From an uncultured Candidatus Saccharibacteria bacterium (GTDB taxonomy: Bacteria > Patescibacteriota > Minisyncoccia > Phycocordibacterales > Zambryskibacteraceae): a stretch of DNA of 29,544 bases. Position numbers and translations under genes: made by a program. Below, piece by piece: positions 2,061-26,027 of this stretch (positions are counted from its first letter, which is position 1; the number at the start of each line of letters is the position of its first letter). The stretch spans positions 1 to 29,544 of the forward strand of contig CAYNNE010000001.1 in the NCBI GenBank assembly GCA_964398725.1. Direction: 5' to 3'. The notes beneath the pieces were generated by a model. The model was not told the origin of the DNA, did not search any database, and worked only from the letters and a program-made list of their open reading frames with translations.

Positions 2061-2456
2061 ATGGAAAACTGTATTTTTTGCAAAGTTGCAAATAAAGAAA
2101 TCCCTCACTATCCTGTGTATGAAGACGAAAATGTCTTGGCTTTTTTAGACATCGCGCCCACCGAACGGGGCCATACTCTAGTAATTCCCAAAAAACATTT
2201 TTCACAGCTCGCCCACACTCCAGATGCTGAGAGATTGAATGTCTTTAGAGCAATAGACAAAATTCGACCGGTTTTGACTGAAGCAATGGGAGCTTGGTAC
2301 ACAATGATTATGATAGCGGGAATAGATCAAGACCATTTCCATGTCCACCTAATACCCAAGATTGATGACACACCAAAACCCTTACATTCAATTAAATTGA
2401 GTCCGAAAGAATTTGAAGAAATCAGAACAAAGATAGTCGAGAAAATGCCCGCTTAA
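2061..2456 (+). CDS. HIT family nucleotide hydrolase
   Basis: N-terminal CIFC, GHTLVIPK and histidine triad HFHVHLIP. Start ATG 2061 (or 2055). Confidence 0.92.
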   Translation: MENCIFCKVANKEIPHYPVYEDENVLAFLDIAPTERGHTLVIPKKHFSQLAHTPDAERLNVFRAIDKIRPVLTEAMGAWYTMIMIAGIDQDHFHVHLIPKIDDTPKPLHSIKLSPKEFEEIRTKIVEKMPA

Positions 2457-3577
2457 CCAAGCGCTTTTATTCCCGGCAGGGTTTCATCGTTTAGGAAATC
2501 AAGCATTGCCGCTCCAGCAGTTGAAAGAAATGTAAAATTTTTTTGAAGACCTAATTTTCTTATGCATGCCACAGTATCTCCGCCCCCCACAATAGATTGT
2601 GCTTTCGTTTCTGAAATCATTTTTGATAAAGCTCTCGTTCCCTCTGTGTATCCCCTTTCATAATTTCCCATTGGGCCATTCCAGATAATAGTTTTTGCTC
2701 CAAAAATAATATCGCGCAAAGATTCAATTGATTGGGGGCCAATATCCATAATTGTTTCTTCTGATCTGATATCGGTCACTTCGGTAAAACGATCGCCACC
2801 ACCACTTACAATAACGTCTGTTGGAAGATATAGCGGTGGTTCAGCAAAAGAGTGCAAGTGTGGAGGAATACTGGAGATAAGAGATCTTCCAACGTCATAT
2901 CCTTTGGACTTAAAGAAGTCGTTTGCAATGGCACCTCCCACAAAAGTTACGTCTGCTTTAGAATAAAAATTTCTAAGGATTGGTAATTTGGTTTCAAACT
3001 TTGCACCACCCAAAATAAAAACAAATGGTTTTTCAGGCACAAAAGCTTTTGATAACTCTTCTATCTCCATTTCAAATTGAATACCCGCAAAGCTTGGTAA
3101 AAATTTTGGCACCGAAACAATAGAGGCGTGCTCGCGATGCGAGCTTGAAAAAGCGTCATTAACATAAATATCAGCATAAGAGGCTAATGCCTTTGCAAAA
3201 TTTTCATCGTTATTTTTTTCCCCGTCATATATTCTTAAATTTTCTAGCAAAACCACTTCCCCCAAATTTAAATGTTCGTCAATCTCTTTGTTGTGTTCTG
3301 GAAAATACTTCTCAGCAAAAAATAAAGGGAAACTTTTGCTTAAAATATCAGCCACGGGTTTTAATGTTTGCTCTCCAAACGAATGGTTGGATTCTATGTG
3401 GCTAACAATTATTATCTTTGCTCCTGCCTCAATTAAAAAATTAATCGTTGGAAGAATAACTTCAATTCTATATTTGTCTTCTAAAATCCCCGAATCAATT
3501 GGCACATTCAAATCAGCGCGCAAGAGCACTCGTTTACCCGCAAACTCCGCTTTATTTTTACTTAATAGCTTCATCAA
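2453..3577 (-). CDS. pgk: Phosphoglycerate kinase
   Basis: RADLNVP, LENLR, YVNDAF, ILGGAK, WNGPMG, VGGGDT motifs. Confidence 0.97.
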   Translation of the reverse strand: MMKLLSKNKAEFAGKRVLLRADLNVPIDSGILEDKYRIEVILPTINFLIEAGAKIIIVSHIESNHSFGEQTLKPVADILSKSFPLFFAEKYFPEHNKEIDEHLNLGEVVLLENLRIYDGEKNNDENFAKALASYADIYVNDAFSSSHREHASIVSVPKFLPSFAGIQFEMEIEELSKAFVPEKPFVFILGGAKFETKLPILRNFYSKADVTFVGGAIANDFFKSKGYDVGRSLISSIPPHLHSFAEPPLYLPTDVIVSGGGDRFTEVTDIRSEETIMDIGPQSIESLRDIIFGAKTIIWNGPMGNYERGYTEGTRALSKMISETKAQSIVGGGDTVACIRKLGLQKNFTFLSTAGAAMLDFLNDETLPGIKALG

Positions 3578-4322
3578 TAATTTTTTCTACTTCATGCTTA
3601 TCTAAACTTTCACGACCCACCAAAAATCCTGAAACATTGCCTATTGTAAACAAATCATGAGCATTATGAGGAAATACCGAACCACCATAAAGAATTTGTA
3701 TATTTTTCCCTATTTTTCCACCAAACAAATTAGAAATAACTTTTCTAATAAACAAAACTGTTTCATGAAGATCTGCTGGAGTCATTGGTCCGACTGAAGA
3801 TTCTCCAATCGCCCAAATTGGTTCGTAAGCAATAATAATATTTGTTATGTCTCTGTTTGTTAAACCAGAAATTGTTTCTTCTATCTGATTTTTAAGTTCG
3901 TGCCAAAACTCTCCGTCGTGCTCCCTTTTTAATTCCCCCACACACACAATAGGTTTCAGCTTTGCTTTCAAAGCACTTTTAATTTTGTAAGAAACAAGAG
4001 TGCTGGTATCGCCAAATTCTCTTTGTTCTGAGTGTCCGAGGATTACATAATCAACCCCCAATCCAAAAACTTGTCTCGGACTTACAAAACCAGTAAAAGC
4101 TCCTTCGCTTTCTACGGAAGTGTTTTGAGCTGAGATTTTTAAGTTTTTAGGAAGTTTTGTCCCAAAAAAAAGTCCCAAATGAGGGGTGGCTGGTGCAAAA
4201 ATTAAAGAAACTCCGCGCCTCATAAACTTTTTAGAAATCTTTTTATAGGAATTAAATAAATTCTTTGCGTCAGTTGCAGACAGGGGGTTCATTTTCCAGT
4301 TACCGGCAAAAATAAAGTTCAT
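3558..4322 (-). CDS. tpiA: Triosephosphate isomerase
   Basis: AGNWKMN, LGHSE, AYEPIWAIG, LYGGSV motifs; start taken at ATG 4322 (MNFIFAG), 7 nt after a TATAAT. Confidence 0.96.
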   Translation of the reverse strand: MNFIFAGNWKMNPLSATDAKNLFNSYKKISKKFMRRGVSLIFAPATPHLGLFFGTKLPKNLKISAQNTSVESEGAFTGFVSPRQVFGLGVDYVILGHSEQREFGDTSTLVSYKIKSALKAKLKPIVCVGELKREHDGEFWHELKNQIEETISGLTNRDITNIIIAYEPIWAIGESSVGPMTPADLHETVLFIRKVISNLFGGKIGKNIQILYGGSVFPHNAHDLFTIGNVSGFLVGRESLDKHEVEKIIDEAIK

Positions 4323-4363
4323 ATTAATGATTATACCGCACACTTATTTTGGTGTTGTCAGAG

Positions 4364-6124
4364 CTATGTTTCTGACGCGACTCTGAAAACCTCGTCTATT
4401 GTAGTAACTCCTTGTACGGCCTTAAATAAGGCATCTTCCACAAAAGAGAGCATTCCATTTTTTAAAGCCTGACTTCTTATTTCTTCTCCAGAACCTTTCT
4501 TCAAAATAATATCCTTAATGGGTTGAGAGATTTCTAGAACTTCAAAGACACCGACAAAGCCAACATAAGCATTCTCTTGTATTTCGTTTATGGGTTTAAA
4601 AAACTTTATATTCTCCAAAGGGGTATTTTTAGAAATTATTTTTTCCAATCTTAATTTTTCTAAAACTTTTTCAGTATCAACAATTCTATTTAATTTGGAT
4701 ATTTCTTTTTCTGAAAGAATATATTCTTGCTTATCTTCACTTAAACGTTTTACCAAAAAATGTCCGACTAATAGCTTGAGCGTTGATGCGAGAGAAAAAA
4801 GATCAACCCCCATATTTAAAACCTTCTCTATTGCCTCATTTGGAGTGGTGGCATTCATAGAGACGAGAACCAACTTCCCTGACATTGATGCGTTTACAGC
4901 AAGTTTCAAAGTTTCGTTGTTTTCAATATTTCCAACCATCACAACATCTGGATCTTGTTTGAGAATTGCTCTTAATCCAGATAAGAAAGTTAAACCTAAG
5001 TCTTCTTTTACTTCTGTTTGATTAATTCTTCTCATTGGATATTCAACAGGAGATTCAATTGTTGAAATAGAAATGCTTGGTTTATTTAAAACATCAAGAA
5101 TGGTGTAAAGGGTAGTCGTTTTCCCTGTTTGAGGTCCACCGCAAGAAATAATAAGACCCGTATTAGACCTAAGTCCCCTGTGTAATGCTTCAAGACTATC
5201 TCCATAAAACCCTAATGTTTCCAAATTAAAACCAAGTGCTCCTGTTTGAATAATTCTCAAAACCATTTTTTCTCCAAATGATGTCGGCAGGGTATTTATC
5301 CTAAAAGACGACTTAACCCCAAACCTTTCGTCTATTTCCATCTTAAATCTGCCGTCTTGGGGAAGAACGCTCGCCAAATCTAAACCTGCCAAAAACTTAA
5401 TGCGTAAAACAATAAGCGAGTGGACCATGGCAGGCAGTGAAAAAGCTTCTCTTAAAATTCCGTCAATTCTATATCTAATAAGCGTATTTTCTTCTTGCGG
5501 TTCCAAGCTAATATCAACAGCGCCTTGAGATATCGCGTGTTTCAAAAATAAATCAACGAGGTGTGAAATTGTTTTATCTTCCGCTATTTTTTTAAAATCT
5601 GCAGAACCAGAATCACCGTCTCCAAAAGATTTGAAATGTTTTGCTAGTTTTTCTGCTTCTTTTTCTATTTTTATACCAAAATCTTTTTTAAGATTTTTTT
5701 GATACAAGAAAAGTGCCTCTCTCATTGATTCCCTATCGGTAAATCTTGGAAGAAATTTTAGTTTATATTCCTTAGATAAAAAATCTACTGAAGAAAAATC
5801 TTCCATATGAAGGAGTGCGACCTCCACAGAAAATTCATCTTTATCAAAAGCTACAATGTTGTGTTTTCTGGAGATTGGTTCTGGAATTAGCTGTAAAATC
5901 TCTAGGCTTATGTTTCTATTTTTCAAATCCACAAAAGGTATTCCGGATAAATTTGCATTTATACGACGCAAATCGTCCTCTGTGATAAGGCCATCTTTTA
6001 TTAAAATTTCCCCAAGGCTAGAGCCTATTTTTTGTGCTTCTTTTTGTGCTTTTACAAGTTCTGTTTTGGAAACCAAGCCAGAATCAAAAGCAAACTCGCT
6101 GAATTTTTTTTCGTCCAATTGCAT
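4364..6124 (-). CDS. PilB/GspE-family secretion ATPase homolog with degenerate catalytic motifs
   Basis: YRIDGIL, PQDGRF, EKMVLR, GKTTTLY, ILKQDPDVVMVG, KAVQGVTTIDEVFRV match the PilB/GspE fold; Walker B, Asp box and His box are substituted (see findings). Confidence 0.9.
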   Translation of the reverse strand: MQLDEKKFSEFAFDSGLVSKTELVKAQKEAQKIGSSLGEILIKDGLITEDDLRRINANLSGIPFVDLKNRNISLEILQLIPEPISRKHNIVAFDKDEFSVEVALLHMEDFSSVDFLSKEYKLKFLPRFTDRESMREALFLYQKNLKKDFGIKIEKEAEKLAKHFKSFGDGDSGSADFKKIAEDKTISHLVDLFLKHAISQGAVDISLEPQEENTLIRYRIDGILREAFSLPAMVHSLIVLRIKFLAGLDLASVLPQDGRFKMEIDERFGVKSSFRINTLPTSFGEKMVLRIIQTGALGFNLETLGFYGDSLEALHRGLRSNTGLIISCGGPQTGKTTTLYTILDVLNKPSISISTIESPVEYPMRRINQTEVKEDLGLTFLSGLRAILKQDPDVVMVGNIENNETLKLAVNASMSGKLVLVSMNATTPNEAIEKVLNMGVDLFSLASTLKLLVGHFLVKRLSEDKQEYILSEKEISKLNRIVDTEKVLEKLRLEKIISKNTPLENIKFFKPINEIQENAYVGFVGVFEVLEISQPIKDIILKKGSGEEIRSQALKNGMLSFVEDALFKAVQGVTTIDEVFRVASET

Positions 6125-6177
6125 CTAGAGCTTATTCTAACAAAAATTGGGTTCAAAAAGTTTAATTTTTTTACTAA

Positions 6178-6244
6178 CTTGAACTTTCTAGCGAGCGAAC
6201 AAGAATAGCAATCTTGAACTTCCGAGCAAGCGAAAATAGCAATC
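6178..6244. repeat. Two imperfect ~35-bp tandem units (CTTGAACTT...AGCRAGCGAA...AATAGCAATC)
   Basis: 6178-6213 cttgaactttctagcgagcgaacaagaatagcaatc versus 6213-6244 cttgaacttccgagcaagcgaaaatagcaatc. Confidence 0.75.
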
Positions 6245-6269
6245 CGGTAGCTAAAAAGCTACCGGATTG
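6240..6269. repeat. Perfect 13-bp inverted repeat with a 4-nt loop, overlapping the nusA -35
   Basis: caatccggtagct-aaaa-agctaccggattg. Confidence 0.85.
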
Positions 6270-6294
6270 ACAAAAATAAAGCAGAGTATATAAT
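6267..6294 (+). promoter_or_regulatory. Sigma70-type promoter for nusA
   Basis: TTGACA (6267-6272), 16-nt spacer, TATAAT (6289-6294). Confidence 0.8.
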
Positions 6295-6308
6295 ACTTTT
6301 ATTACAAG

Positions 6309-6341
6309 ATAACGGTTCGCCTCAAAAAGGCGGGCCGTTAT
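6309..6341 (+). promoter_or_regulatory. Hairpin in the nusA 5' leader (possible attenuator)
   Basis: ataacggttcgcct-caaaa-aggcgggccgttat, 14 bp with 2 G-U pairs, between promoter and start codon. Confidence 0.55.
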
Positions 6342-6366
6342 TGTTAAAAGAAATAAAATAAACAAC

Positions 6367-7611
6367 ATGTTTGATCTAAAAGTCATCAATTCAGTGCTTG
6401 CAGAACTTGAGGAAACCAGAGGTATTCCAAAAGAAAGAGTCATTGAGGCCATAGAAGCTGCCCTTGCTACTGCTTATAGAAAAGAATTTGGTAAACGTGG
6501 GCAAATTGTGCGTGCAAAATTTGATCTTTCCTCAGGAAAGGTGGATTTTTTCCAAGTAAAAACCGTTGTTGATGATACTCGTGTTGTTATGACAGAAGAA
6601 GATCTCTCAAAAGAAAGGGAGGAAACTCCAGAGTCTATGCGTGTTCTTTTCAACACCGAACACGACATCATGCTTGATGACGCGCGCCTTATAAAAAAAG
6701 ATGCACAAATTGATGATGAAATAATCTTTCCTCTAGAAGCAAAGGCTGATTTCGGACGCATTGCGTCTCAAACCGCAAAGCAGGTAATAATGCAAAAAAT
6801 ACGTGAGGCTGAGAAAGTTTCTGTAGTTGGCGAGTTTGGTAAACGCGAAGGTCAAATAATTACAGGAACCGTGCAAAGAATTGAGCGCGGAAATATCTTT
6901 ATTGACCTAGGAAGAGCTACTGGCCTTCTTTCATACGATGAAAGAATCCCCGGAGAGCACTTTAGTCAGGGTGAAAGAGTGCGTGCATACTTATACAAAG
7001 TGGAAGAAACCCCACGCGGAGTCTTCTTAAGACTTTCTCGAGCTCATCCAAAATTTGTTGAGGAATTGTTTAAACAAGAATCTCCTGAAGTGCAAAGCGG
7101 AACGGTACTTATTAAAGCAATTGCTCGCGAGGCAGGCTCTCGTACAAAAATTGCTGCATTTTCTGATGATTCTCATGTAGATCCTGTTGGCTCTCTAGTT
7201 GGTCAGCGTGGAGTGCGAGTATCAACTGTGATGTCTGAGCTGGGCGGCGAAAAAATAGACATAATCGAGTGGTCACAAGACCCTAAAACCTTTATTGAAG
7301 ATTCCCTTTCTCCTGCAAAAGTAATGGAAGTTGTTGTAGATGAAGCAAACCAAAGCGCTGTGGTTGAAGTTTCCGAAGACCAGCAATCTCTTGCCATCGG
7401 TCGTGGCGGACAAAATGTGCGCTTGGCCGCAAAGCTAACCGGATGGAAAATTGATATTAAATCAATGCAAGGACTTGAACTTGCTCACGCTGACGCTGAT
7501 TCTATAAAAACAGAGGTGGTCGCGGAGTCTCCTGTAGAAGAAATTAAAATTGAAGAAACAGTTGATGTTCCTGTTGTAGAAGAAATTCCAGCCGAAAAAT
7601 CCGAAGCCTAA
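6367..7611 (+). CDS. nusA: Transcription termination/antitermination factor NusA
   Basis: FGRIASQTAKQVI, S1 domain, AREAGSRTKIA, GEKIDII, SLAIGRGGQNVRLAAKLTGWKIDI. Confidence 0.98.
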   Translation: MFDLKVINSVLAELEETRGIPKERVIEAIEAALATAYRKEFGKRGQIVRAKFDLSSGKVDFFQVKTVVDDTRVVMTEEDLSKEREETPESMRVLFNTEHDIMLDDARLIKKDAQIDDEIIFPLEAKADFGRIASQTAKQVIMQKIREAEKVSVVGEFGKREGQIITGTVQRIERGNIFIDLGRATGLLSYDERIPGEHFSQGERVRAYLYKVEETPRGVFLRLSRAHPKFVEELFKQESPEVQSGTVLIKAIAREAGSRTKIAAFSDDSHVDPVGSLVGQRGVRVSTVMSELGGEKIDIIEWSQDPKTFIEDSLSPAKVMEVVVDEANQSAVVEVSEDQQSLAIGRGGQNVRLAAKLTGWKIDIKSMQGLELAHADADSIKTEVVAESPVEEIKIEETVDVPVVEEIPAEKSEA

Positions 7612-16371: not shown

Positions 16372-16656
16372 TTAAAACAACGCTTGTATTTCTTCTGTAG
16401 AATCGTCTTCTACAATTGGAGCAGTTCTGTTAAAACCACACGCAACGCACTGAAGTTTAATTTTTATTGGCACGCCCCCTTTTGTTTCTACTCCTATGGG
16501 CTTCATTAATCCTTTACATACCTCTTCCCTATCTCCTGGGCTTATATCCACGTGTTTAGACCACAAGCATTTAGGACAATGATTGGTATAGCCATTCCCC
16601 ATAACTTTTGCTCCGCAATTTTCACAAACAAAGTTTTCTTTTGTACGGATAAACAT
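16372..16656 (-). CDS. RNHCP-domain-like zinc-binding protein
   Basis: F.CENCG...NGYTNHCPKCLWSKHVDISPGDR...C.G.M.P...C..CG; start taken at MFIRTKE (16656). Confidence 0.85.
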   Translation of the reverse strand: MFIRTKENFVCENCGAKVMGNGYTNHCPKCLWSKHVDISPGDREEVCKGLMKPIGVETKGGVPIKIKLQCVACGFNRTAPIVEDDSTEEIQALF

Positions 16657-16740
16657 AATATTGTCTGGATTACCAGACAAACATGTCGTCGCTCAAAAAT
16701 ACTAAAGCAAGCTTTGTATTTTATTCGCTCCTAATGTTTG

Positions 16741-20599: not shown

Positions 20600-21517
20600 T
20601 TATTTATTGTGAAATTTTTTATGAACGTCTCGCAGTTGTTTGTCTGTAACATGGGTATAAATTTGTGTAGTTCCAATATTTGCGTGTCCAAGAAGCATTT
20701 GAACACTTCGTAAATCTGCACCATTTTGCAAAAGATCCGTTGCAAATGAGTGGCGCACCACGTGAGGAGTTACTTTTTTTGAAATACCAGCTTTGATTGC
20801 GTAGTGTTTTACTAAACGCTGAACAGAACGAGGAGAGAGGGGAGAAACATCTCCTTTTTCTTTTTTTGAAGTTTCTACAAACAACGCATCAGACATATCT
20901 TTTCTTTTACTCAAATAATTTTTTAATGCCTTGCGCGCTTCATCTGAAAGAAAAACAACGCGAACTTTTTCGCCCTTTCCTCGTACTGAAAACTCATCGG
21001 AAGATAAATCTAATTCCCTAGGCAAATTACATAATTCAGAAACACGAAGGCCTGTTGAAAATAAAAGCTCGAGCACAGCCTTATCTCTAAGGCTTTTTAT
21101 ATCGTCATCGCTTGGCGCGGATAAAAGGCGCACTAATTCAGCCTTAGAAATTAAATCTAAATGCCTTTCACCAACTTTCGCTAACTCAATTCTGTCTGGT
21201 GGCAAACTTTGTACGCCCGTTCTCATTAAATATTTTAAAAATGCGCGAAGTGCAATTAAATAATAATTTTGTGTGCGTTTTTTCAAAGTTTGAGAATGGC
21301 CATCAATTTTTTCTCCCGAAGCTTGGCGATTGAGCCACAATCTGAAGTCGCGAACATTTGTATCTGAAATATCTTCTGCTTTTTTGAGTTCGCTCCATAG
21401 GGCAAAGCGGTTTAAATAGTGAGAATAGTTTTCAACCGTTTTTAATGAACGGCCTTTTTCTATTTCTAGATATTGAAGAAATTGGTGTATTTGTTCTTGG
21501 AGTTTAGTTTTTGCCAT
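20600..21517 (-). CDS. XerC/XerD-family tyrosine recombinase
   Basis: N-terminal SAM-like domain; TGLRVSEL, RGKGEK, HVVRHSFAT, LLGH, TTQIYTHV catalytic residues. Confidence 0.95.
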   Translation of the reverse strand: MAKTKLQEQIHQFLQYLEIEKGRSLKTVENYSHYLNRFALWSELKKAEDISDTNVRDFRLWLNRQASGEKIDGHSQTLKKRTQNYYLIALRAFLKYLMRTGVQSLPPDRIELAKVGERHLDLISKAELVRLLSAPSDDDIKSLRDKAVLELLFSTGLRVSELCNLPRELDLSSDEFSVRGKGEKVRVVFLSDEARKALKNYLSKRKDMSDALFVETSKKEKGDVSPLSPRSVQRLVKHYAIKAGISKKVTPHVVRHSFATDLLQNGADLRSVQMLLGHANIGTTQIYTHVTDKQLRDVHKKFHNK

Positions 21518-24503: not shown

Positions 24504-26027
24504 ATGGCATTTGCGAAAGTACACACAGCACAAACAAATCTACTTTCAGGCAATTTAATTGATGTTGAAATAGACCTTTCTAGGGGCTTACACTCTTTTT
24601 CAATCGTTGGTTTACCCGATAAAGCAACAGAAGAAGCTAAGGATAGGGTGTCGGCTGCCATCAAAAATTCTGGTTTCACATCACCAAAACAACGAAACCA
24701 AAAGATAGTAATCGCTTTGGCACCAGCGGAAATAAAAAAGGAGGGGTCTGGGTTTGATGTGGCTATGGCCGTTGGATATTTAATGGCAACAGAAGAGTTG
24801 GAGGGAAATATTTCAGAGACAATTTTTATGGGTGAACTATCGCTTGATGGAGTTTTAAGGCCCGTGCGTGGAATAATTTCAATTACACAAATTGCTCGCA
24901 ATAATGGCTTTAAAGAAATCATTGTTCCTTTTGAAAACAGAATTGAAGCCGCTCTTATTGATGGAATTAATGTTCTTCCAGCCAGAACTTTTACAGATGT
25001 AATAAATCACATTAACGGTGAAACAATACCTCCTCAACCAAAAACATTAATTGAAGCAACTCCTGAAGAAAATGAAATCACGTTTGACGATATTGTTGGA
25101 CAAGAAAGCGCAAAGAGAGCTCTCACAATAGCGGCCGCAGGGAAACATAATATTGGTTTATTCGGCCCTCCCGGGACAGGAAAAACAATGCTGGCAAAAG
25201 CATTTAAAGGAATTCTTCCTCCGCTATCACACGAAGAAATTCTTGAGACAACTAGCATTCATTCTATTTCTGGAACTTTAAAAAAACCATATTTGACCGA
25301 AGCTCCGTTTCGTTCACCGCATCACACCTCGTCTTATGTTGCACTCGTCGGTGGCGGAGCAACTCCAAAACCGGGCGAAATAACTTTGGCTCACAAAGGT
25401 GTTTTATTTTTAGATGAATTCGCAGAGTTTGAAACGAGAGTGCTAGAGGCCCTGCGCGAACCATTGGAAGAAAAAAGAGTTTCTGTTTCTCGCGCAAAAG
25501 GTAGCGCAATTTTTCCTGCTAATTTTATTTTAGTGGCCGCACTAAATCCTTGTCCATGTGGCAACCGCGGATTTAAAGGACCACCATGTATTTGTTCTCC
25601 TGTGCAATTATTAAAATACGAAAGAAAAATTTCTGGACCAATTTTAGACAGAATTGATATGTGGATTTCTGTTCCAAGAATTGATCACGAAAAACTTCTC
25701 TCTGAAAAAAACACGCGGGAGAATAATCGTATTAGAGAAAAAGTTTTAGAGGCGCGAGCAATACAAGCAAAAAGATTTGTTAAAAATAAATCTAAATTGA
25801 ATGGAGATATCTCTGTAAAAGAATTGGTTAATTTAATAAAAATTTCAGCGGAGGTTAAAAGTGTTTTGGATGAAGCGGCAAAAATATTAAATTTATCTCC
25901 ACGCGCTTATCACAAAGTTGTAAAACTAGCTCGCACAATTGCAGATTTAGAGGGGGGTGAAGAAATTAAAAAAGAAAATCTTCTGGAAGCACTTTCATAC
26001 AGACCACCAAAAAATACGCTCGCATAA
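24504..26027 (+). CDS. comM: ComM/YifB Mg-chelatase-like AAA+ helicase
   Basis: IVGLPD, LAPAEIKKEGSGFDVA, GELSLDG, GPPGTGKTMLA, FRSPHH, GEITLAHKGVLFLDE, AALNPCPCG, SGPILDRID, RAYHKVVKLARTIADL. Confidence 0.95.
   Translation: MAFAKVHTAQTNLLSGNLIDVEIDLSRGLHSFSIVGLPDKATEEAKDRVSAAIKNSGFTSPKQRNQKIVIALAPAEIKKEGSGFDVAMAVGYLMATEELEGNISETIFMGELSLDGVLRPVRGIISITQIARNNGFKEIIVPFENRIEAALIDGINVLPARTFTDVINHINGETIPPQPKTLIEATPEENEITFDDIVGQESAKRALTIAAAGKHNIGLFGPPGTGKTMLAKAFKGILPPLSHEEILETTSIHSISGTLKKPYLTEAPFRSPHHTSSYVALVGGGATPKPGEITLAHKGVLFLDEFAEFETRVLEALREPLEEKRVSVSRAKGSAIFPANFILVAALNPCPCGNRGFKGPPCICSPVQLLKYERKISGPILDRIDMWISVPRIDHEKLLSEKNTRENNRIREKVLEARAIQAKRFVKNKSKLNGDISVKELVNLIKISAEVKSVLDEAAKILNLSPRAYHKVVKLARTIADLEGGEEIKKENLLEALSYRPPKNTLA

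Follow-up and report, generated by a model that had tools for sequence, protein, structure and literature searches.

A PilB orthologue orphaned by operon truncation has lost catalytic residues and is retained under purifying selection between nusA and tpiA-pgk

The 29,544-nucleotide (nt) stretch of DNA analysed here (contig CAYNNE010000001.1 of assembly GCA_964398725.1, from an uncultured Candidatus Saccharibacteria bacterium; "the window") encodes on its minus strand a protein derived from the type IV pilus motor ATPase PilB/GspE, which we named pilBx. The gene is an in-situ positional orthologue of a canonical pilB and not an extra paralogue; the pilC and pilin genes that belonged to it were deleted, an origin that the first-pass annotation of the window, made from the sequence alone, had missed. 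That annotation had proposed a maintained PilB homologue without hydrolysis residues that may serve as scaffold, nucleotide sensor or hetero-hexamer regulator of the type IV pilus motor. Intact reading frames in seven degenerate copies together with a ratio of nonsynonymous to synonymous substitution rates (dN/dS) of 0.078 support the maintained homologue, and the names given to homologues in databases place the organism in the candidate phyla radiation (Patescibacteria). Since pilB was orphaned and lost catalytic residues, yet is under strong selection, the product is probably a non-motor ATP-binding protein. Lacking the catalytic Glu, the His box and an adjoining PilC, it is filed here as a PilB-derived pseudo-ATPase and not as PilB. 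The preferred reading, to which we give an even chance, is that this orphaned orthologue would bind ATP-Mg, hydrolyse it poorly or not at all, and modulate or scaffold the remaining pilus machinery. The gene, its domains and its motifs are as follows (aa, amino acids).

4364..6124, minus strand: pilBx, PilB/GspE-derived open reading frame (ORF) of 586 aa, coordinates with the stop codon included (ORF call, Pfam, NCBIfam, alignment)
5615..6124, minus strand: N1 domain, aa 1-170, MshEN/GSPII-like (Pfam MshEN)
5195..5614, minus strand: N2 domain, aa 171-310, with R259, R275 and R290 (alignment to 5tsg)
4367..5194, minus strand: C-terminal ATPase domain, aa 311-586 (Pfam, alignment, AlphaFold2 model)
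5117..5140, minus strand: Walker A GGPQTGKT, aa 329-336, Lys335 and Thr336 kept, fits GxxxxGK[ST] (alignment)
5039..5056, minus strand: Asp box ESPVEY, aa 357-362, both Glu kept, Asp replaced by Ser (alignment)
4919..4954, minus strand: atypical Walker B region DPDVVMVGNIEN (alignment)
4853..4882, minus strand: His-box region SGKLVLVSMN, first His replaced by Lys417, second His by Asn424 (alignment)
4733..4756, minus strand: LVKRLSED, aa 457-464, site of the first CxxC in the PilB/GspE clade, no Cys (alignment)
4550..4561, minus strand: GFVG, aa 522-525, replacing GRxG, Arg lost (alignment)

The pilBx motifs align column by column with GPTGSGKT, EDPVEF, GEIRD, STLH, the Cys region and GRVG of Geobacter PilB, and all motifs quoted in the first-pass annotation are present as written. 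Residue roles were taken from McCallum et al. 2017 (PMC5424180) and mapped onto pilBx via the 20-residue offset of chain 5tsg. In VGNIEN (aa 397-402) the catalytic Glu is replaced by Asn399 and the Arg and Asp of GEIRD by Glu401 and Asn402. One of the two His-box histidines of Geobacter PilB contacts the gamma-phosphate according to that paper; in pilBx the places of both are taken by Lys417 and by Asn424 in VSMN (aa 421-424). Furthermore, the Arg of QRL has become F456 and the Arg of GRxG F523. Retained are K335, T336, E357, E361, R259, R275 and R290. By the residue roles of that source, E361 is the counterpart of the Mg-coordinating E357 of Geobacter PilB, R259 corresponds to its R257 and R275/R290 to the arginine fingers R271/R286 (5tsg alignment). 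Both fingers are invariant in the 12 degenerate sequences of one alignment, and the first His is exchanged for Lys or Arg in 10/10 non-redundant degenerate sequences. Walker A had been counted among the replaced motifs; its Lys is kept, as had been noted, and GGPQTGKT still fits the consensus.

The reading frame comprises 586 codons from ATG to TAG without frameshift or internal stop, in agreement with the earlier description of a full-length ORF. Pfam assigned T2SSE (PF00437) to aa 181-581 (5e-77, 259.5 bits against a cut-off of 24.9) and MshEN to the N-terminus (26.8 bits, cut-off 23.1). Among the NCBIfam models, PilB TIGR02538 ranked first with 375.7 bits, under its cut-off of 675.65; GspE TIGR02533 (330.6 bits, cut-off 630.25) and ComGA (162.5 bits, cut-off 300) also scored under their thresholds. 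The model bearing on binding of cyclic di-GMP by N1, NF053729, reached 31.6 bits under a cut-off of 38. An AlphaFold2 model built from an 85-sequence alignment had a mean predicted local distance difference test score of 84.6, and Foldseek matched it to PilB/GspE structures with template modelling (TM) scores, normalised to the target, of up to 0.85 (5zfr/5tsh). These data show that pilBx keeps all three domains and, in the model, a confident PilB fold. The PilB proteins of Geobacter metallireducens and G. sulfurreducens (5TSG, 5TSH, 5ZFR) resemble it in fold (TM-score normalised to target 0.77-0.85, E-value 3e-79) and have equivalents of Walker A, the Mg-coordinating Glu and both arginine fingers. 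In contrast, their E395, H413, H420 and T411 correspond to Asn, Lys, Asn and Ser in pilBx, which also has neither a zinc site nor a cognate PilC. An assembly or sequencing artefact was rejected, as P0002 (92% identical, from another source) and the orthologue of the sister species G004 (85%) carry the same motifs.

The genome that contains the window (G000; 578 kb, 54 contigs, 95% complete) was compared with 41 related genomes, from which 30 orthologues were extracted. The five that come from the window's genus are degenerate; in the 25 from other genera every motif is canonical. The great majority of database homologues at 47-50% identity is canonical too, and degeneration is confined to the closest few. 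The own genome encodes three further PilB-type proteins and one PilT, all canonical and 24-36% identical to pilBx, so that the intact PilB paralogue proposed for checking does exist. With these proteins canonical and 25/30 orthologues of the relatives strictly so, the replacements in pilBx are not due to chance. All five genus members have lost both His-box histidines and the GRxG arginine. In contrast to the Glu-to-Asn exchange envisaged as a clade marker, these species have N, N, E, D and D at the catalytic position; Glu is found in G001 as well as in G011 and G017 from other genera, and Asp in G002 and G003. The degenerate ORFs are intact in 7/7 copies among the relatives (560-586 aa; 581-586 aa within the genus). 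Cysteines are missing from either site of the tetracysteine zinc motif in pilBx, as had been noted, but this does not belong to the degeneration. The set of four is found in none of the 25 canonical orthologues, a few of which keep two; absence of the zinc cysteines thus predates degeneration and is ancestral to the orthologue family. The canonical 'family A' PilB (e.g. G007, L036:6898-8658) is like pilBx in its position between nusA and tpiA-pgk, its length, its three-domain layout and its lack of the tetracysteine site, at 46-50% identity. It differs in having GPTGSGKT, EDP[VI]EY, GEIRD, TGH..H and GRxG, and in being followed by pilC and pilin-like genes.

Three neighbouring genes define the locus.

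6367..7611, plus strand: nusA, divergent, the conserved upstream neighbour marking positional orthology (Pfam, synteny)
3558..4343, minus strand: tpiA, 20 nt downstream of the pilBx stop, at the deletion junction (Pfam, synteny)
2453..3577, minus strand: pgk, overlapping the end of tpiA, probably in the same transcription unit (Pfam)

According to Pfam, G007 and G025 share the order divergent nusA, one ORF, pilB, pilC (T2SSF), downstream ORFs, tpiA and pgk. The ORF between nusA and pilB encodes a large secreted protein in G007 and an unannotated protein of 190 aa in G025, and the products of the ORFs after pilC include N_methyl pilin-like proteins and a protein of 458-474 aa. In the canonical loci that were laid out, tpiA-pgk follows pilC and its downstream genes in 22/24; of the two exceptions, one is cut by a contig end and the other has tpiA about 8 kb further on. 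pilC starts at most about 250 nt downstream of pilB in 26/26 canonical relatives. In the window and in G004, G001, G002 and G003, pilB directly abuts tpiA, and the same junction with a degenerate PilB occurs in G011 and G017. Among the 41 relatives, degenerate motifs were thus present in 7/7 genomes with the deletion as compared to 0/26 with pilC adjoining. The comparison shows that 4-6 kb reaching from pilC to the gene of the ~460-aa protein were deleted in the ancestor of the genus and its sister G017, that this left pilB as first gene ahead of tpiA-pgk, and that the catalytic Glu, both histidines of the His box and several conserved arginines disappeared from the orphan pilB.

Other rearrangements of the locus were observed. 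The whole pilus operon including pilB is gone in L111 (G024) and L115 (G014), where the large secreted-protein gene abuts tpiA, and pilB is also absent in G035 and G026. G019 was rejected as a genome without the gene, its canonical copy being present and cut by the contig start. In the rearranged operon of L062 (G040), tpiA-pgk-recJ comes immediately after pilB-pilC; the pilin-like genes and that of the ~460-aa protein lie beyond recJ on the opposite strand.

Selection on pilBx was assessed by Nei-Gojobori (NG86) comparison of G000 with G004. The dN/dS of pilBx was 0.078 at a dS of 1.17, next to 0.093 for recJ, 0.117 for tpiA, 0.053 for pgk and 0.039 for nusA. Four segments of the gene gave 0.055, 0.067, 0.080 and 0.124; the lowest value belongs to N1, in which 36/57 canonical-invariant columns are kept. 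These values show that purifying selection on pilBx is as strong as on the neighbouring housekeeping genes. A decaying pseudogene was rejected on the lack of stops and frameshifts and on this low ratio, and the neutral decay that would have spoken against a maintained protein is not seen in comparison with the sister species. The ratio of PilB to housekeeping p-distance was 1.50 within the genus (10 pairs) versus 0.56 among canonical genomes (190 pairs), i.e. degenerate PilB evolves about 2.7 times faster than its canonical orthologues relative to three housekeeping proteins. Out of 249 canonical-invariant columns, 131 are kept and 57 lost, with losses densest in the ATPase core (27/91). Constraint is therefore relaxed on catalysis and still strong on the protein overall.

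Expression signals bear on a different explanation of the open frame.

6134..6142, minus strand: extended -10-like TGTTAGAAT (TGnTAGAAT), putative promoter element 9 nt upstream of the ATG (conservation)

pilBx had been said to possess its own promoter. A scan of the minus strand from 6125 to 6366 found no -35/-10 promoter, and of the claim only this extended -10 stands. It is kept as TGCTAGAAT in G004 while the flanks diverge, and would give a near-leaderless pilBx mRNA. As the sole promoter-like element in front of pilBx, it might make the gene a mere carrier of expression signals: a functionless relic whose ORF stays open only via promoter or translational coupling for tpiA-pgk, or through polarity of nonsense mutations. 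Consistent with such a relic, pilBx ends 20 nt upstream of tpiA, the minus strand shows no terminator-like site from pilBx to pgk, tpiA-pgk already adjoined the ancestral operon closely, and evolution is accelerated. Polarity selects against stops and not against amino-acid changes, however, and dN/dS is low over the full length and in each of the four segments. Moreover, the frame has not shrunk within the genus, intact copies at 30-45% identity exist in another lineage (see below), and G024 and G014 removed pilB wholly and keep tpiA-pgk. With amino-acid changes selected against and tpiA-pgk retained without pilB in these two genomes, a pure promoter-carrier role is unlikely. A functionless relic is disfavoured and in our view highly improbable.

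The number of truncation events was examined with a tree of Pgk, TpiA and RecJ from 27 genomes. It united the genus and G017 in one clade (support 100) and placed G011 as sister of G010, which has an intact operon (support 100). In an approximately unbiased (AU) test on these housekeeping data, a single clade for the seven degenerate-bearing genomes was rejected (log-likelihood difference 125, p 1e-68). A single origin, as displayed by PilB gene trees that join all degenerate sequences (support 95 and 94), was rejected: G011 and G017 form long branches in these trees, the housekeeping data contradict the grouping, and the PilB data do not reject the sisterhood of G010 and G011 (AU p 0.11), which is why the PilB grouping was judged unreliable. 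We conclude that at least two independent truncations occurred, each then followed by motif loss. With a Candidatus Adlerbacteria genome added, which forms a long unresolved branch in the housekeeping tree, the degenerate state required three changes, at least two of them forced by supported branches.

With a profile built from the degenerate clade, 1.84 billion cluster representatives were searched. Among the 150 hits listed and P0001, 96 lack the Glu/His/His set, and in a FastTree phylogeny, which is prone to long-branch effects, 97 degenerate sequences stood together beside the canonical orthologue family. Comparison of 97 degenerate with a few canonical 50%-identity clusters gives too high an impression of prevalence, since proteins that evolve fast are spread over more clusters. 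In the 97 representatives the first Asp-box Glu is kept in 96, the Mg-coordinating Glu in 73, the Walker A Lys in 67, the arginine fingers in 66 and 53, and the catalytic Glu in 29. The first His is kept in 6/97, replacements being mostly Arg, Lys or Val. Positions conserved to at least 90% in this wider clade number 12 in N1, 14 in N2 and 9 in the ATPase core (numbering approximate). One of its members, P0225, lies in the Candidatus Adlerbacteria genome mentioned above in the order RNase Y, trigger factor, ppa, nusA, degenerate pilB, tpiA, pgk, recJ and RNase H, which is the gene order of the window. This genome belongs to the same taxonomic order as the window's, since the listing of its relatives repeats the coordinates of G025-G040. 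It and 12 close relatives carry older, intact but more eroded degenerate copies of 538-627 aa at 30-45% identity; pilC adjoins in 0/13 and tpiA-pgk lies directly downstream in 9/13. In five further relatives, shorter copies were found at the same place in four and none in one.

In a class-wide census with a degenerate-sequence profile, canonical orthologues ranked highest: the top 30 loci were all canonical, with pilC within the 1.5 kb flank in 24/30, and ten mid-scoring genomes contained canonical PilBs of other families. A search with P0225 at E <= 1e-125 matched 0/301 genomes, a result that carries no weight, since the threshold was stricter than the scores of P0225's own relatives.

The wider clade suggests another explanation, namely that pilBx is a nucleotide-independent protein with a new non-pilus job, e.g. 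in signalling or as a structural component, that its PilB fold provides no more than a scaffold and that its ATP-site residues are a transient leftover. Progressive erosion of the ATP site in frames that stay intact and the location of the best conserved positions in N1/N2, outside the ATPase core, are in line with this idea. A precedent exists in Myxococcus xanthus. According to PMC5544727, its PilB has a regulatory effect on exopolysaccharide that does not depend on pilus assembly, and signalling persists in a variant deficient in ATPase activity. The M. xanthus protein differs in being an active motor too, its inactive forms being laboratory mutants; in pilBx the loss of catalytic residues is natural and fixed, and the partner genes are lost too. 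Against nucleotide independence, the P-loop Lys and Thr, the Mg-coordinating Glu and the arginine fingers are invariant in 12 genus sequences differing by up to 66%, which is hard to explain without nucleotide binding. Furthermore, no non-pilus partner is visible, the neighbours being the housekeeping genes that already flanked the ancestral operon. We consider a nucleotide-independent role unlikely.

The preferred reading, an ATP-Mg-binding protein acting on the remaining pilus machinery, takes the following form. The ancestral operon is a second type IV filament operon, consisting of pilB, pilC, three or four pilin-like genes and the gene of the ~460-aa protein; across this order of Patescibacteria it is located between nusA and tpiA-pgk. 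pilBx may still bind ATP-Mg at its subunit interfaces and, if so, would still oligomerise. It would hydrolyse ATP poorly or not at all and drive no pilus of its own. Its conserved N1/N2 half might dock on the remaining pilus machinery and modulate or scaffold it, candidate partners being the PilM socket, one of the two remaining PilC platforms or another PilB/PilT paralogue. In PMC11656802, PilB is described as sitting in a cytoplasmic PilM socket and engaging PilC. The own genome has two PilC genes, as compared to three in G007, and its remaining pilus genes are a pilM-pilO-pilB-pilT-pilC cluster (contig C17), a locus with a short pilB, pilC and pilin genes, and a lone canonical pilB.

Several points weigh against this reading. 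A dS of about 1.17 is near saturation and makes the dN/dS imprecise, although the pN/pS of 0.086/0.592, i.e. 0.15, is still far below 1. Erosion of nucleotide-binding residues across the 97 representatives means that retention may not need ATP. The locus is lost in some lineages and copies are shortened to about 470-500 aa in others, as would be expected of a dispensable function that erodes slowly. The three genus species that keep Glu or Asp at the catalytic position may have residual hydrolysis. As for the independent truncations, the group submitted to the AU test was named only after the tree had been seen, and the housekeeping tree comprises three genes only, all linked to the locus.

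The remaining PilC genes also permit a motor ATPase that still works, perhaps slowly, and has found a new partner in a PilC encoded at another locus; Lys417 and further replacements would compensate for the lost His box. Retention of Walker A, the Mg-coordinating Glu and both arginine fingers would suit a motor, as would the Glu of G001, G011 and G017, the Asp of G002 and G003, the constant exchange of the first His for a basic residue and the two PilC genes available; the canonical orphan PilB on contig C2 demonstrates that orphan status alone is no sign of inactivity. In pilBx itself, however, Asn occupies the catalytic position and neither histidine remains, one of the two being equivalent to the residue in contact with the gamma-phosphate in Geobacter PilB. 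The rate acceleration and the 27/91 losses in the core point to released catalytic constraint, and the P-loop Lys is lost in 30/97 representatives of the wider clade. A working motor is thus an improbable alternative, a little more so than a nucleotide-independent protein.

Two of the remaining pilus loci were inspected. The lone PilB on contig C2 (L066:2739-4460, minus strand) is canonical, has 573 aa and lies between a polA-like 5'-3' exonuclease gene and tsaE; no pilC is located near it, and hits of the same class were obtained in nearly all of the 41 relatives. A second small filament locus extends over the end of contig C12 and the start of C19 (L068:8826-10064, L069:1-4226). It contains a 412-aa PilB without N1, a PilC cut by the contig ends, three N_methyl pilins, a PilX-like protein and a 459-aa LVIVD beta-propeller protein.

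Two other systems offer parallels. The archaellum protein ArlH/FlaH binds ATP, hydrolyses it poorly and associates with and regulates the motor ATPase ArlI/FlaI, and would by analogy work like the role proposed for pilBx; unlike pilBx, ArlH is RecA/KaiC-like and no homologue of PilB, and its gene accompanies that of its partner. ComG-type competence pseudopilus operons have the order comGA-comGB-comGC..GG, i.e. ATPase, platform and small pilin-like genes. The ancestral operon between nusA and tpiA shows a ComG-like gene order; unlike ComG operons, the window holds only the ATPase gene.

More tentatively, PilB-derived pseudo-ATPases could constitute a widespread, unrecognised family in Paceibacteria-type members of the candidate phyla radiation (CPR), which would arise repeatedly by loss of the pilC-pilin part from a ComG-like operon at the nusA/tpiA locus and last over very long periods as non-catalytic subunits that occupy or tune the pilus machine left in the cell. 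They might, for example, lock the PilM/PilC docking site or join hetero-hexamers. This broader proposal is possible, though doubtful; if true, it would establish a natural class of pseudoenzymes within the PilT/VirB11 secretion-ATPase superfamily. A full-text literature search found no description of such proteins, its coverage being incomplete and their absence from the literature unproven. None is described either in passages from a review of PilB, a study of Saccharibacteria pili, which reports conserved Walker boxes, and a study of CPR protein families. Of interest are the recurrent link of operon loss with loss of catalysis and the long time over which the orphan has been kept. In CPR bacteria, type IV pili are central to host attachment and DNA uptake, and PilB is treated as a pure motor; pilBx is a motor gene that outlived its own machine and is kept by selection in several lineages. 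Catalysis is shed in a reproducible order, the His box and the GRxG arginine going before the catalytic Glu and the P-loop later, and this natural series can be used to ask which functions a PilB hexamer has beyond ATP hydrolysis. The case also cautions that automatic 'PilB/GspE' annotation inflates the number of working pilus motors in CPR genomes.

The database hits outside the window also included 13 proteins of about 980-1020 aa resembling tandem PilB-PilB fusions (P0124, P0131, P0134, P0141, P0147, P0150, P0153, P0156, P0157, P0160, P0162, P0164 and P0183). Pfam found two T2SSE domains each in P0124, P0131 and P0153, and a motif scan detected two canonical Walker A motifs in 13/13 and two TGH..H His boxes in 12/13. 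Such fusions, both halves being canonical, hint that related PilBs can work as mixed oligomers. A further hit, P0181, is a PilC-PilB fusion.

The spacer between pilBx and nusA displayed additional elements. At 6240-6294 of the window, an inverted repeat with a 13-bp stem is part of a 46-nt insertion that G004 lacks. The inverted repeat overlaps the -35 of a perfect TTGACA-16-TATAAT promoter directed towards nusA, and two AGTTCAAG direct repeats are located just beside it. The nusA leader (~6300-6366) is nearly identical in G000 and G004, and the rest of the spacer has diverged. This leader holds a hairpin-like CGGCCCGCC...GGCGAACCG and may be regulatory. Among the sequencing runs listed as bearing the genome, five DNA sets are groundwater metagenomes and no RNA set is included. 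Elsewhere in the window, Pfam identified an RNHCP-domain protein (16372-16680, minus strand), a XerC/D-type tyrosine recombinase (20600-21517, minus strand) and a Mg-chelatase/ComM-like ATPase (24504-26027, plus strand), all of which look ordinary.

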